Shown in pieces: positions 34,299 to 37,760 of a stretch of DNA of 56,309 nucleotides; within the stretch, counting starts at the first letter, position 1; each line of letters opens with the position of its first letter. The notes below the pieces were generated by a model. That model made no database searches. It was not told where the DNA came from and saw nothing but the letters and a program-made list of their open reading frames with translations. Both the position numbers and the translations under genes were made by a program. Origin of the DNA: an uncultured Pseudomonadota bacterium (GTDB taxonomy: Bacteria > Pseudomonadota > Alphaproteobacteria > RF32 > CAG-239); assembly GCA_902763905.1 (NCBI GenBank), contig CACWUA010000014.1:1-56309 (forward strand). Reading direction: 5' to 3'.

Positions 34299-34321
34299 TA
34301 TTATCCGTCATTGCACAAAAC

Positions 34322-34349
34322 AGCCCCGTACCAGAAGATGTACGGGGCT
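34322..34349. terminator. Hairpin between convergent genes
   Basis: AGCCCCGTAC-N8-GTACGGGGCT. Confidence 0.7.
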
Positions 34350-34354
34350 AATAT

Positions 34355-35260
34355 TTAATTTTCATCAATACAACTTTGCAAAATCTCAGAATCCGGCGCA
34401 TTATTCTTAAATTCTTGTAATTCTTTTTCTGATAATTTACTGACCTTATCTTCCATACATTTAAGAATTTGCTTTCTTATTTTATTTTTTCCGTAATCGT
34501 TCATTTTCTTTTTTGCATTTTCTTCCATAAGTATGATTTTCGCCTTGGCTGTTGTTGAAATAATTTCATCTACGCTATATTCGGAGAATATGCAATCCTC
34601 AACCTTTATAAGGACTTTTAAGTCATTTTCCTTATATGCTTCCAATTCTTCGTGGGATAAACTATTGATACATTTTTCAAAACTGTCATCCGGCAATCCG
34701 TTGTTTTTCAAAAAATAATTATATACGAGATATTTTTTATATTCTTCATCGGAATCATATTTCTTCAAACATTTAGTAGCTAATTCAGAGTAGAAATCAC
34801 CAATTTTCATCAGCTTACTGTCATTTTTATCTTTATTATGCGTTTTAATGTACCAGCGTTGATATTGCGGCATTTTATAAAATGCTTCTTTGACGCATTC
34901 TTCTGATTTAGAAAACGGATATTCAAGATTTGCCAAATAATCGTCATCACTTAAGTAAAGAAAACATTTATTGATTTTCTTATAATAGACATCAAGTTTA
35001 TCTTGCGAAAGCGAACTCATTAATCCACTACGCGCTACTTTATCGGCATTAGCAAGTTGTTTGAATATATCCTTATTATATTCGCTATTTAGATACGCTT
35101 TGCATTTGCATTAATCCGGTGAATTTGGCGCTTCTATTGAACAAGTTTCGATGTATTTGTTGATTAAAAATGTGTTGCTGTTCATATATGCATAAGCACC
35201 GATGCCGCCGATACATAAAATTGACGCTAAACTTGCAATAATCGCTGTAATTTTCTTCAT
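34355..35260 (-). pseudogene. Cys-rich exported or membrane-anchored protein with one in-frame stop at codon 50
   Basis: ATG 35260 (after GGAG) gives MKKITAIIASLASILCIGGIGAYAY...PD*CKCKAY..., continuing in frame into the 221-aa ORF; TAA at 35113-35111. Confidence 0.8.
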
Positions 35261-35261
35261 T

Positions 35262-35954
35262 TTAGTCTCCTTCGGGGTTGGTTAGATTATTGATTTGAGA
35301 TTTATTTACTAACCTCATCAATTCTTTCAGATATGTTCGCTTCGGATTATTCTCTCCTAAGTTTTCTACATAGACTTCGAGACATTCAGGACAATATTTA
35401 TAAAGAGCTTTGATGAATTCATCCTTTCTAGAATGCATTTTTTGCAATAAACCAAACATTGTGTGTATATAATCTAATTTACGTGCATATTTTTTCATAT
35501 AAAAAATTGCTAAATTGTAAGCTTCAGGACTACCTATATCTCCAAGAGCAGCTATTTTTAAGTCAACCGCATAACGATTATTTTCATTTTTCTTAAGTAA
35601 ATCATCACATATAGCAATGGCTTTTTGATATTCTTGAGACATTCTGAATTCTTTTGCTTTTTGCAATTCTGTTTTCACTGGCTCTATTAAAAATTCTTGA
35701 TTTGCATAAAACTCTTCCAAATCATAATATGCATCTTCCATTTCTTCATACTGTCTATCAATCATATCAATTATATTATAGTAAGCATCTTCATAATAAG
35801 AACAATCTCTATCGTCGGTATCTACTCCTTCATAATAACATTGATTATCACTATCATTATAGTAGTAATTATTATGTTTTACCCCGCCTATAGATTGTTG
35901 CATCTGCTCTATTTCTTCCTGTAGAAATTTTCTTATTTCTTCACTATTACTCAT
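35262..35954 (-). CDS. TPR-like protein with very acidic Tyr/Asp-rich N-terminus
   Basis: ATG 35954 after AAAGGGG; AKEFRMSQEYQKAIAICDDLLKKNENNRYA is a TPR-like pattern. Confidence 0.7.
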   Translation of the reverse strand: MSNSEEIRKFLQEEIEQMQQSIGGVKHNNYYYNDSDNQCYYEGVDTDDRDCSYYEDAYYNIIDMIDRQYEEMEDAYYDLEEFYANQEFLIEPVKTELQKAKEFRMSQEYQKAIAICDDLLKKNENNRYAVDLKIAALGDIGSPEAYNLAIFYMKKYARKLDYIHTMFGLLQKMHSRKDEFIKALYKYCPECLEVYVENLGENNPKRTYLKELMRLVNKSQINNLTNPEGD

Positions 35955-35977
35955 AATCGTATCCCCTTTCACACCAT

Positions 35978-36007
35978 AAAAAAATCCACCTTAAATAAAT
36001 AAGGTGG
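35978..36007 (-). terminator. Intrinsic terminator/attenuator in the leader of the TPR-like gene
   Basis: Minus strand CCACCTTA-TTTATT-TAAGGTGG-ATTTTTTT, about 25 nt before the start codon. Confidence 0.75.
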
Positions 36008-36101
36008 TCGGAGAGTTCGTAAATCATATTGCGTGAAATGATTCTTTTAGCCTTTAAAATCATATAAGATTTTTGGACATACGCTAAAAGCTCCCCGACC
36101 A
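36005..36101 (-). ncRNA. C4 antisense-like structured RNA
   Basis: Closing stem UGGUCGGGGAG/CUCUCCGACCA, arm CUUUUAGC/GCUAAAAG, arm AAUCAU/AUGAUU with loop containing CACGCAA, then unpaired UUACGAA; both are complementary to upstream sites. Confidence 0.72.
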
Positions 36102-36130
36102 TATTGCTATGAATCGGGGATATATTTATC

Positions 36131-36247
36131 GTCGGTTGTTACGAATAACCGACAATTTAACGATGTTACATCCGAACACCGCACGCAACAAAGGCTTACG
36201 ACAGCCCGCACCTTTTTTATTTAGGTACTAACCGAAAATTTCGGCTG
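36131..36247 (-). promoter_or_regulatory. Upstream target region (c4 a1b1-like) of the antisense RNA
   Basis: Hairpin GGCU-GUCGUA-AGCC exposing UCGUAA, followed by UUGCGUG; second hairpin GUCGGUU/AACCGAC with loop containing UUCGUAA. Confidence 0.62.
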
Positions 36248-36252
36248 AAATC

Positions 36253-36281
36253 AGCATAACAAACTAAATTTTTTTTTGCAA
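36253..36281 (-). promoter_or_regulatory. sigma70-type promoter for the C4-like leader
   Basis: Minus strand TTGCAA-N17-TATGCT. Confidence 0.65.
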
Positions 36282-36323
36282 CATTTTTTGAGGTATGTAT
36301 TTTATATCATCATTACAAAATTT

Positions 36324-36347
36324 AAGGCTCTCAGATGAGAGCCTTTT
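36324..36347 (-). terminator. Hairpin terminator after the transporter gene
   Basis: AAGGCTCTC-AGAT-GAGAGCCTT. Confidence 0.65.
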
Positions 36348-36371
36348 GCATATGAGCACAATATCCGCCTT

Positions 36372-37760
36372 TTAGTTGAACACAGCCATTATCAGCAGTA
36401 AGCCTAATCCGAGCGGAGCGATGTAGCGCAACGTTATCAGAAAATAACGGGTAAAACCGCTCGATACGTGTGCACTGCGGCGAATGTTATGAATTATCGG
36501 TTTCATCGCCTTATAGCCCACAAACAGCGCCATCGTCAGCGATACAATTGTTGCCGTATATGTCGAGGCCAGCCAATCGGCAAACGTGAACAAATCGCGT
36601 CCGAAAATCTTCCAATCTAACAGGCCGGAAAATGAGGCCGTTACTGCCGTAAAGCCCAAACCGGAAATCAACATTACCAACAAAGCCGCCGTAAAACGCG
36701 AAACTTTCAGCTTATCAATAAACAAATTGGTCGGCATTTCAAACAGCGAAACCGTCGAAGTTACGGTCGCCAACATCAGCAACAAATAAAAAGCCAATGC
36801 CCAGAAGTGTCCGCCGTTTAATTGTTGAAACACCAGAGGCAGGCTGATAAACGTCAGCCCCGGACCGGATTCTGCCGACATTCCGGCGGAAAAAATTGCC
36901 GGTATAATGATTATCGCACTCAAAAGCGCCGCCATCGTATCAAAAAATTCAATACTGCGCACCGACTTAAACAAATTCTCCCGCGGCGAAAAATAGGAGC
37001 CGTAAACCAACAGAATACCAAAGCCGAGCGATAGCGAAATAAAGGCCTGTCCCAAAGCGGCGGTAAAGGTTTTAAACAGCGGCGTCCAACGGAAACCGTC
37101 GGCCGTAAATCCCAAATGCGTCTTATCAATCGTCAGCAGAAAATCAATCCCTTTCTCTGCTCCGTTTAAGGTTAGCGCCCGCACACTCAACAGAATAAAT
37201 ATCAAGAACAAAACCGGCATCAGATAAAGTCCGGTTTTCTCAATGCCTTTGCGCACTCCGCCGATAACCACAACCGCCGTCGCCAACAAGAAAATCAAAC
37301 CGCTGCTGTATTGAATCGTAAAGTTCTGCGTCAACGATTGAAACTCGTTTTCAAGATTGTTTTGGCTTATCAACATCAACTTGCCGCTGACCGCCTCAAG
37401 AAAATAATACAGCACCCAGCTTGCCACCAAAAAATAAAATGAGAGGCACAAAAACACACCGAAAGCCGAAAACCAACCGCCGAAAAACGACCACAGTCCC
37501 AAGTGTTTCATTCCGGTTTGTTCGCCGATTAGCCTATAAGAATCAATACAGTTACTTTTGGCAGTGCGGCCGATGGAAATTTCCGCCACCATCAACGGAT
37601 TGCAGATCAGCAACAAAATCAACAGATATACCAAAATAAAGCTCAAACCGCCATATTGTCCGCACAAATACGGAAAACGCCAAATATTTCCCAACCCGAC
37701 GGCGGAACCGGCCGCAGTCAGGATAAAACCCCATTTACTGGAGAAATTTTCTCTTTTCAT
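36372..37760 (-). CDS. Sodium-dependent transporter (NSS/SNF family)
   Basis: RENFSSKWGFILTAAGSAVGLGNIWRFPY, GQAFISLSLG, GPGLTFISLP. Confidence 0.95.
   Translation of the reverse strand: MKRENFSSKWGFILTAAGSAVGLGNIWRFPYLCGQYGGLSFILVYLLILLLICNPLMVAEISIGRTAKSNCIDSYRLIGEQTGMKHLGLWSFFGGWFSAFGVFLCLSFYFLVASWVLYYFLEAVSGKLMLISQNNLENEFQSLTQNFTIQYSSGLIFLLATAVVVIGGVRKGIEKTGLYLMPVLFLIFILLSVRALTLNGAEKGIDFLLTIDKTHLGFTADGFRWTPLFKTFTAALGQAFISLSLGFGILLVYGSYFSPRENLFKSVRSIEFFDTMAALLSAIIIIPAIFSAGMSAESGPGLTFISLPLVFQQLNGGHFWALAFYLLLMLATVTSTVSLFEMPTNLFIDKLKVSRFTAALLVMLISGLGFTAVTASFSGLLDWKIFGRDLFTFADWLASTYTATIVSLTMALFVGYKAMKPIIHNIRRSAHVSSGFTRYFLITLRYIAPLGLGLLLIMAVFN

Follow-up and report, generated by a model that had tools for sequence, protein, structure and literature searches.

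The 56,309 nucleotides (nt) of contig CACWUA010000014.1 from an uncultured alphaproteobacterium (RF32; CAG-239), called the window in the following, contain a structured RNA element on the minus strand between positions 36281 and 35978. On balance we favour the interpretation that this element is a self-contained transcription unit with a leader of about 270 nt which is related, though divergently, to the c4-a1b1 and C4 RNAs of phages P1 and P7 and to the seqA-CI system of phage P4, or at least closely resembles them in architecture, and that this leader acts in cis on the gene behind it. It belongs to a family of RNAs placed before ordinary bacterial genes, mostly genes for surface proteins, which the family probably controls. 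The window copy consists of the following parts:

36281-36253, minus strand: promoter-like sequence TTGCAA-N17-TATGCT (-35 region 36281-36276; -10 region 36258-36253), read from the sequence
36246-36208, minus strand: 5' hairpins P0 (36245-36231) and P1 (36228-36223 with 36213-36208)
36207-36192, minus strand: Pa, a hairpin of 4 base pairs (bp) whose 8-nt loop presents site a (UCGUAA, 36201-36196)
36188-36182, minus strand: site b (UUGCGUG), single-stranded, 7 nt past site a and 3 nt past the Pa stem
36181-36131, minus strand: hairpins P3 (36181-36175 with 36167-36161) and P4 (36153-36147 with 36137-36131)
36145-36139, minus strand: second copy of a (UUCGUAA) in the P4 loop
36120-36112 with 36100-36092, minus strand: competing hairpin H1, which holds the 5' strand of the closing stem
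36100-36006, minus strand: C4-like three-way junction
36100-36091 with 36015-36006, minus strand: closing stem H2 of the junction
36090-36044, minus strand: arm P5/P5i of the junction
36042-36023, minus strand: hairpin Pb', whose loop carries b' (CACGCAA, 36035-36029)
36022-36017, minus strand: junction a' (UUACGA), followed by AAC
36007-35986, minus strand: stem of an intrinsic terminator (8 bp, 6-nt loop) followed by T7, reaching to 35978; match of the scan tool
35967-35962, minus strand: Shine-Dalgarno sequence (SD) AGGGGA, with the start codon of the downstream open reading frame (ORF) at 35954-35952

An earlier note, made from the letters of this DNA alone, had described a phage-immunity-style C4 antisense RNA cassette wired as an attenuator. 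Every complementarity and every site which it listed was found in place when the sequence was read. The 281-nt leader folds with a minimum free energy (MFE) of -91.2 kcal/mol, corresponding to z = -6.3, and none of 200 shuffled sequences folded as well. The promoter-like pair agrees with the sigma-70 consensus in 8 of 12 positions and was not listed by the scan tool, since this value lies under its cut of 9/12.

The pairing of the proposed helices was analyzed on an alignment (A1) of 57 of the 61 distinct copies found within the same genus. The partial copies L021, L094, L101 and L026 were left out, and the duplicates L005 (of L004) and L028 (of L001) had been dropped. In this alignment the helix between site a and a' was paired in 96.2% of the cells and all six pairs were changed on both sides. 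For b and b' the corresponding values were 97.9% and seven of seven pairs, with 4-5 pair types per position. Taken together, double changes were observed in 13/13 pairs of the two helices, which is the covariation of loop and target among relatives that the earlier note had proposed to look for. Arm P5 (99.3% paired) carried double changes in 8/8 pairs, Pa (94.7%) in 3/4, Pb' (98.6%) in 1/5, H1 (96.0%) in 2/7 and the terminator helix (80.0%) in 6/8; the closing stem H2, counted separately, was paired to 97.0% with double changes in 3 of its 10 pairs. P3 and P4 were paired to 85% and 70%, respectively. The whole structure without H2 reached 86.3% pairing compared to 71.5% after shuffling (0/500 shuffled alignments were as high), and sliding the 3' partners by 1-3 columns lowered this value to 36-47%. 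For hairpin P1 the formal count on A1 gave only 39.6% pairing, because the region is misaligned by MAFFT; by eye, compensatory changes such as GUGCC/GGUGC, GCGCC/GGCGC and GAACC/GGUUC are apparent. We also considered the 3' strand of hairpin P1 as an antiterminator. Its duplex with the terminator 5' arm of the same copy was just 1.1 kcal/mol better than non-self duplexes (-10.9 versus -9.8 kcal/mol), and this candidate was rejected; none of 5000 permutations gave a value as low, with copies that are related to each other. In some copies (A1 columns ~240-260; for example L010:1137-1277) the P5 arm contains a longer inner hairpin with a conserved UAUCUCUG motif.

Two partners are available to the 5' strand of the closing stem, GGUCGGGGAG: pairing with the upstream sequence CCCCGAU gives H1, and pairing with CUCUCCGACC gives H2 and thereby the C4-like fold. 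Columns 181, 209 and 317 of A1 covary in a three-way manner. Ten copies carry U instead of G in the shared strand. When the rows were read individually, the H1 partner was A in 10/10 and the H2 partner was A in 8/10 of these copies; column counts give 7 rather than 8 for the H2 partner, as two rows are shifted by one column. Thus, the partners in both helices follow the change in the shared strand, and H1 and H2 are both under selection even though they exclude each other. This supports the mutually exclusive pairings postulated in the earlier note. RNAalifold favours a nested long-range helix composed of GGAG:CUCY, a:a' and b:b', which encloses H1 and P5. In MFE folds of the 57 single sequences a:a' was formed in 51, b:b' in 52, H1 in 48, the terminator in 36 and H2 in none. 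Constrained folding with either a/b or a'/b' blocked was rejected as a demonstration of a switch, since H1 dominated every state and no clear switch was seen. The duplication of the upstream target, which the earlier note had regarded as unusual, is shared by a sub-clade: a second a 6-mer recurs in the P4 region of 6/57 copies, compared to 0.4% of non-self controls, and covaries with a.

C4- and CI-type RNAs are textbook phage immunity factors. The layout of the window copy was compared with the Rfam consensus structures for phage P1 and with the phage P1 annotation (a1, b1, c4, a2, b2, icd). As in C4, a closing stem, a hairpin A and a hairpin B with a large loop form a three-way junction, hairpin B presents b' in its loop, and a' occupies the 7-nt junction that precedes the closing strand. 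As in c4-a1b1, a hairpin is followed by a 4-bp hairpin with a in its 8-nt loop and then by a single-stranded b, with a and b complementary to a' and b'. The architecture assigned in the earlier note hence agrees with that of phage P1. Two other features of the phage locus, namely a2/b2 sites over the ribosome-binding site of the next gene and an icd/ant context, are both absent here.

The order of elements shared with the immI regions of P1 and P7 (RF03163 and RF01695, clan CL00128) is promoter, hairpin, 4-bp hairpin with a in an 8-nt loop, and single-stranded b about 7 nt further on. The three-way junction lies about 65-80 nt beyond b, its closing stem starts with AUGG, CCACC comes after the closing strand, its second hairpin has 5 bp with b' in a loop of 10-12 nt, and the 7-nt junction contains a' and then AAC. 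The present family differs in several features. Its first junction hairpin is a long arm with the invariant internal loop GCGUAUGUYCA/AAAGGC, it possesses the tight alternative hairpin H1, it lacks a2/b2 after the RNA, its closing stem enters a terminator or pairs with the SD, and the downstream genes are not icd/ant. In phage P1 (L270, 48320-48365) the sequence ACGCCC just before c4 could pair with GGGCGU, which belongs to the 5' strand of the C4 closing stem; by eye, this looks like an alternative hairpin of the H1 type.

Four other regulatory RNAs show partial likeness. In phage P4 the CI RNA pairs with seqA and seqC and thereby causes termination (PMC4825925). The present family resembles this system in having a target site upstream of a structured RNA which derives from the leader of the same transcript, and in P4 the outcome is transcription termination (PMC4825925); in contrast to P4, no downstream site of the seqC type was found here, the two being compared by description. 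IsrK of the Salmonella Gifsy-1 prophage is described as a short terminated leader RNA which activates its own silent read-through mRNA in trans, this mRNA being translationally silent through long-range pairing so that alternative structures decide on translation (PMC4825925). IsrK and the present element are both leader RNAs with a terminator of their own, but trans activation, which has been proven for IsrK, is no more than a guess for the present family. The Rfam isrK model scored 35 bits on the a1b1 region of phage P1, below its cut-off of 50, and gave no match in the window. The Group 1 C4-like small RNAs (sRNAs) of Acinetobacter baumannii are described as multicopy chromosomal RNAs with variable a'/b' which are recognised by the Rfam C4 model, and their coverage starts at GGW, where they are apparently cut by RNase P (PMC5320573). 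The closing stem of the present RNA likewise begins with GGU. The present family differs from Group 1 in being undetected by Rfam, tied to a downstream ORF and equipped with covarying upstream a/b sites. The Brt RNAs of Bartonella henselae, nine highly transcribed leader RNAs of about 200 nt whose transcripts stop ahead of the downstream gene and for which a riboswitch-like role was proposed (PMC5387305), are also an alphaproteobacterial leader RNA family; they differ in having genes for XRE regulators downstream, and this comparison was made by description only.

The source genome (1.53 Mb, 71 contigs) contains five copies of the element, and BLAST matches were obtained in 16/24 other genomes of the genus, one of them with 17 matches. 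For more distant relatives a covariance model (R1) of the 3' domain was used, comprising 121 positions and 35 pairs and built from 54 sequences (A3: the copies of A1 except the near-duplicates L009, L072 and L074). R1 matched 136/151 genomes of the family (own genome, G000, included), 123/134 genomes of good quality and 21/23 genera. The 764 matches in the 151 family genomes amount to between 1 and at least 23 per positive genome, 23 being the number of candidates scored. Consequently, the cassette is not the single domesticated one which the earlier note had supposed; it is one of hundreds of copies, which occur in several phyla. For G118, G181, G079, G116, G135 and G170, with genomes of 1.2-1.6 Mb, at least 23 matches were scored and the true copy number may be higher. 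In a survey of the class with one genome for each of 150 families (own family among them) plus G000, 20/151 genomes were positive; this tally includes G000 and the unpublished genome G211, which enters into no other result.

A motif pattern, which shows presence and not distribution, was found on 22 viral contigs and on at least 120 genome contigs (80 listed). Among the matches listed are named records of Rhizobium, Shinella, Phyllobacterium, Celeribacter, Xanthobacter and Granulicella rosea, and metagenome-assembled genomes (MAGs) labelled Rickettsiales, Micavibrio, Acidobacteria, Verrucomicrobia and, in one case, Flavobacteriaceae, where the labels of other phyla may be binning errors. R1 gave 38 matches in 37 tested pattern loci (44.8-114 bits) and 102 matches in 100 loci. 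The copies on pSymA of Sinorhizobium meliloti M270 and on a plasmid of Agrobacterium vitis scored 67 and 70 bits, respectively. A BLAST search with a GC-rich copy matched 12 plasmid records, and among 50,697 phage records it found no match. About 6 kb from the element of Shinella kummerowiae, an unrelated ar15 (AbcR-type) sRNA was detected with 94 bits (L179:941-1051).

In a wider alignment of 99 distinct sequences (A5), which were fitted to the model, H2 was paired to 98.6% with double changes in 6/10 pairs, P5 to 97.1% (8/8) and Pb' to 94.3% (5/5). The long-range pairing was followed in 47 distant copies (51 were listed, and four whose junction did not match the pattern were dropped). An exact complement of 6 nt or more was found upstream for a' in 45/47 of them, compared to 22% of non-self controls, and for the b' region also in 45/47, compared to 40% of controls. 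Most of these sites are located around -50 and -40 relative to the core. In some GC-rich copies (L274:1563-1676, L275:1563-1676 and L143:8685-8803) the b' complement extends into the stem of hairpin B, whose loop has only 3-4 nt, so that b:b' and this hairpin would be mutually exclusive there.

The position of the element relative to genes is constant. Of 61 hits in 60 distinct loci, 56 are followed by an ORF of at least 40 amino acids (aa) starting just past the element, and for 55 of these 56 the first in-frame ATG, GTG or TTG is found at -24 to +41 nt relative to where the nhmmer match ends (103 nt in the remaining one). Among the five hits lacking such an ORF, three are cut by the contig end and two show none. 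By eye, the likely start is located about 15-45 nt past the U-tract, behind a ribosome-binding site of the GGAG type. Distant copies are placed before an ORF in the same way. At the other end, a promoter-like pair (TTGACA/TTGCAA-N16-18-TAnnnT) is seen in most of the 57 copies and ends about 20-30 nt before the first conserved hairpin.

The products encoded behind the element were analyzed with a set (A2) in which each of 54 copies is represented by the nearest following ORF of at least 60 aa; L005, L028, L009 and L072 as well as five copies without such an ORF or off the contig were excluded from this set. BspA-type leucine-rich repeats (LRR_5) were found in 13 of the 54 products. Others were glycosyltransferases or enzymes of capsule synthesis, PEGA lipoproteins, a YadA adhesin, a beta-barrel/opacity-type porin, a PLD-like protein, a secreted nuclease and an RHS protein, and the window's own ORF matched nothing. 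No family named as an antirepressor was present among these 54 ORFs. For the 22 ORFs scanned behind distant or viral copies, the matches were limited to PHROGs without a known function and to Pfam families that are unrelated, again with no antirepressor.

The 3' strand of H2 is connected to expression in two ways. In AT-rich lineages it runs into the terminator with an overlap of 2-4 nt; for the window copy this overlap consists of the first 2 nt of the terminator. GC-rich lineages often lack a U-tract, and their H2 3' strand (AACUCCCC) is complementary to the SD a few bases before the start codon, as in ACUCCCC...GGGGAGU. Such an H2 strand, doubling as a terminator arm or an anti-Shine-Dalgarno sequence, points to cis action, and so does the combination of one sensor domain with two kinds of platform directly before an ORF. 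Sixteen SD-type copies were listed and five of them were folded. The SD was paired in the MFE fold of 5/5, in two of them with the H2 3' strand while H1 forms and in three with the H1 5' strand while H2 forms. Since the SD was paired in all folded copies, the default state looks OFF. In the window, too, GGGGAU of the SD is complementary to AUCCCC in the H1 5' strand, as read from the sequence.

Within a genome the a/b code is unique for each copy, with b as the discriminating part. The codes are no more orthogonal within a genome than between genomes, as the non-self score was 7.73/13 for copies of the same genome and 7.41 for those of other genomes. Scores of at least 11 were obtained for 13/310 pairs from the same genome and 163/2882 pairs from other genomes, giving no sign of selection for insulation. 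The response to cognate RNAs in trans which the earlier note had suggested is conjectural. Sites a and b vary about as much as other unconstrained helices (P4, P5i). Neutral compensatory drift would be enough to explain the variation of the codes as judged from these comparisons. In the source genome, which is 95% complete, no site of the form a-N(7-8)-b was found outside a copy's own leader; co-occurrences of a and b at other spacings were few and fit a rough chance estimate of about 1.7 per code. With no other target of the family spacing in the genome, a' and b' address only their own leader. The region between RNA and ORF contains neither a nor b, and hence no downstream copy of the a2/b2 type, in agreement with the earlier note, which had seen no evident downstream target.

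Downstream of the element the window contains a block of three ORFs:

35954-35262, minus strand: ORF of 230 aa
35260-35111, minus strand: ORF of 49 aa
35020-34355, minus strand: ORF of 221 aa
34350-34321, minus strand: terminator closing the downstream gene block

No Pfam family was found for the products of 230 and 221 aa. The 49-aa ORF (35260-35111, minus strand) has a signal-peptide-like N-terminus and could encode a small membrane protein or else be a remnant. The gene upstream of the element encodes an SNF-family transporter (37760-36372, minus strand; Pfam SNF) and has its own terminator at 36345-36324. The earlier note had seen no prophage genes nearby, and indeed none was present among the eight neighbouring proteins scanned, which were housekeeping proteins or had no Pfam family. 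The block from about 34300 to 36313, consisting of promoter, leader, three ORFs and terminator, is missing from two close relatives (L029 and L032), in which the SNF transporter gene directly abuts a cyclophilin gene. The cassette is thus accessory, having been inserted or deleted as a block. In two public runs (X8 and X9; kind unspecified) there are contigs which carry the leader from 35976/35979 to 36263 with 95-99% identity and unrelated flanks on both sides. Since the break points fall at the leader ends, the leader apparently moves as a modular unit. The RNA-library run X1, a library which may contain DNA, includes a contig of 141 nt identical to 36081-36214, and run X2 gave no match to the window. 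The four public runs exist as contigs only, so that starts, ends, strand and level cannot be read from them. The window copy possesses RNase P-type sequence determinants, namely AU followed by GGUCGG on the 5' side, with predicted cleavage between the two, and GACC-ACC on the 3' side.

Several results weigh against a relationship to C4 and against the proposed switch. The element was not detected by any family of Rfam 15, whichever threshold was tried. The search with the C4 and c4-a1b1 models which the earlier note had suggested found nothing: C4 (RF01695; gathering 45 bits) had no match in the window, nor on 35850-36400 at expectation values (E) up to 10, and c4-a1b1 (RF03163; gathering 46.7 bits) had none at E up to 10. 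Both models also failed to match eight viral element loci (E up to 1) and eight loci of named genomes (E up to 0.1). The same search recognized phage P1 as a positive control with 68.8 bits for C4 and 51 bits for c4-a1b1. Over the source genome neither model matched a copy of the element, the C4 model giving a single unrelated hit of 13.9 bits, and in the class the C4 model was positive in 1/151 genomes, one which R1 does not match. A weak Rfam hit to Spot 42 (19.8 bits versus a gathering value of 80) was treated as chance. In the reverse direction, the best hit of R1 in 2 kb of phage P1 fell exactly on c4, yet with 6.2 bits and E 0.59, and R1 was unconvincing on three true C4 loci of another alphaproteobacterium (G320). 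As the R1 scores on true C4 RNAs are not significant, homology to C4 is not established by models. Further points concern the mechanism. H2 was never the MFE choice (0/57 unconstrained, and 3/57 and 10/57 with a/b or a'/b' blocked), both strand matchings mask the SD in the five SD-type copies folded, the overlap of H2 and terminator in the window is just 2 nt, and the public runs give no usable evidence of expression.

The missing model matches would be expected if the element were an orphan riboswitch or a protein-binding leader. Here the three-way junction with its invariant internal loop would bind a small molecule or a protein, a:a' and b:b' would be ordinary long-range helices or pseudoknots, and the likeness to C4 would be convergent. 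The unpaired nucleotides of the P5 internal loop are invariant across phyla, a single type of sensor domain occurs with both expression platforms, and multiple copies stand before surface, adhesin and glycosyltransferase genes and one GGDEF gene, a gene set typical of control by second-messenger riboswitches; the variation of a and b, being no greater than that of P4 and P5i, fits as well. We nevertheless regard this explanation as unlikely, for the part-for-part match to C4 and c4-a1b1, down to the AAC and the CCACC tail, would then be a large coincidence, no ligand can be named and the downstream genes share no pathway.

The RNA could also be a free-standing C4-type antisense RNA which is released by its own terminator, perhaps with the help of RNase P, and represses targets elsewhere, for example in incoming phages or other elements, its position before genes being incidental. 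The RNA is indeed equipped with a promoter-like pair and a terminator of its own, copies were found on 22 viral contigs and on conjugative plasmids, and the sRNAs of A. baumannii provide a precedent (PMC5320573). Three observations make this quite improbable: the 95%-complete genome contains no second a/b target with the family spacing, the site before the ribosome-binding site is constant and the SD is complementary to the closing-stem strands, and the 22 ORFs scanned on viral contigs do not encode antirepressors. Finally, the block of about 34300-36313 missing in two close relatives and the leader occurring at 95-99% identity between different flanks in the contigs of two runs could indicate a recombination or mobility module, that is, a portable promoter-leader cassette shuffled among accessory genes in which the RNA structure is secondary. 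We give this hardly any weight, because it leaves the 13/13 covarying pairs of a:a' and b:b' and the covarying three-way junction unexplained; no repeats or recombinase were seen, although no search was aimed at them.

For the cis-acting, C4-like leader which we favour, the following mode of action can be proposed. The default product would be either a short terminated RNA or an mRNA with a masked ribosome-binding site, and repartnering of the H1, H2, a and b strands would turn expression on. The likeliest triggers would be the short RNA of the cassette itself, acting in trans on the nascent leader as IsrK and the CI RNA of P4 do, or an RNase P cut at the GGU with which H2 begins. A more far-reaching version, which we consider doubtful, is that each cassette is a self-addressed feedback switch in which accumulated C4-like RNA, terminated or processed, would bind only the a/b sites of nascent leaders from its own locus via its private a'/b' and thereby flip these leaders between the H1 and H2 folds. 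If this were true, each surface-protein gene would have its own RNA-based memory or dosage control and the immunity logic of P4 and P1 would be reused dozens of times per genome. The C4/CI module would then be a general bacterial regulatory device and not a phage curiosity.

Multicopy chromosomal relatives of C4 have so far been described in gammaproteobacteria (A. baumannii; PMC5320573). Since such RNAs and self-acting RNAs derived from leaders are known, the kind of element is itself not new. New is a family which is undetected by Rfam 15, occurs in several phyla and reaches at least 23 copies in genomes of about 1.2-1.9 Mb. Also new are the fusion to a terminator or SD platform, the pairing of the a1/b1 type proven by covariation in the absence of a2/b2, and the set of surface-protein genes. 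No paper on this family was found in the full-text literature searched, with many subscription papers and supplements lying outside the scope of that search.

The C4 design is thus encountered as a leader in 136/151 genomes of a gut and rumen alphaproteobacterial family, on rhizobial plasmids and in MAGs labelled Acidobacteria and Verrucomicrobia, where it is wired to the terminators or ribosome-binding sites of genes for adhesin-like proteins, lipoproteins, pilin-like proteins and glycosyltransferases. The cultured carriers Sinorhizobium meliloti M270 and Agrobacterium vitis make experiments feasible, and the family offers a testable model for the so far unexplained a1/b1 sites of phage P1. 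A large unannotated RNA family is added to genome annotation, and it could explain how variable surface genes are controlled in gut bacteria with small genomes.

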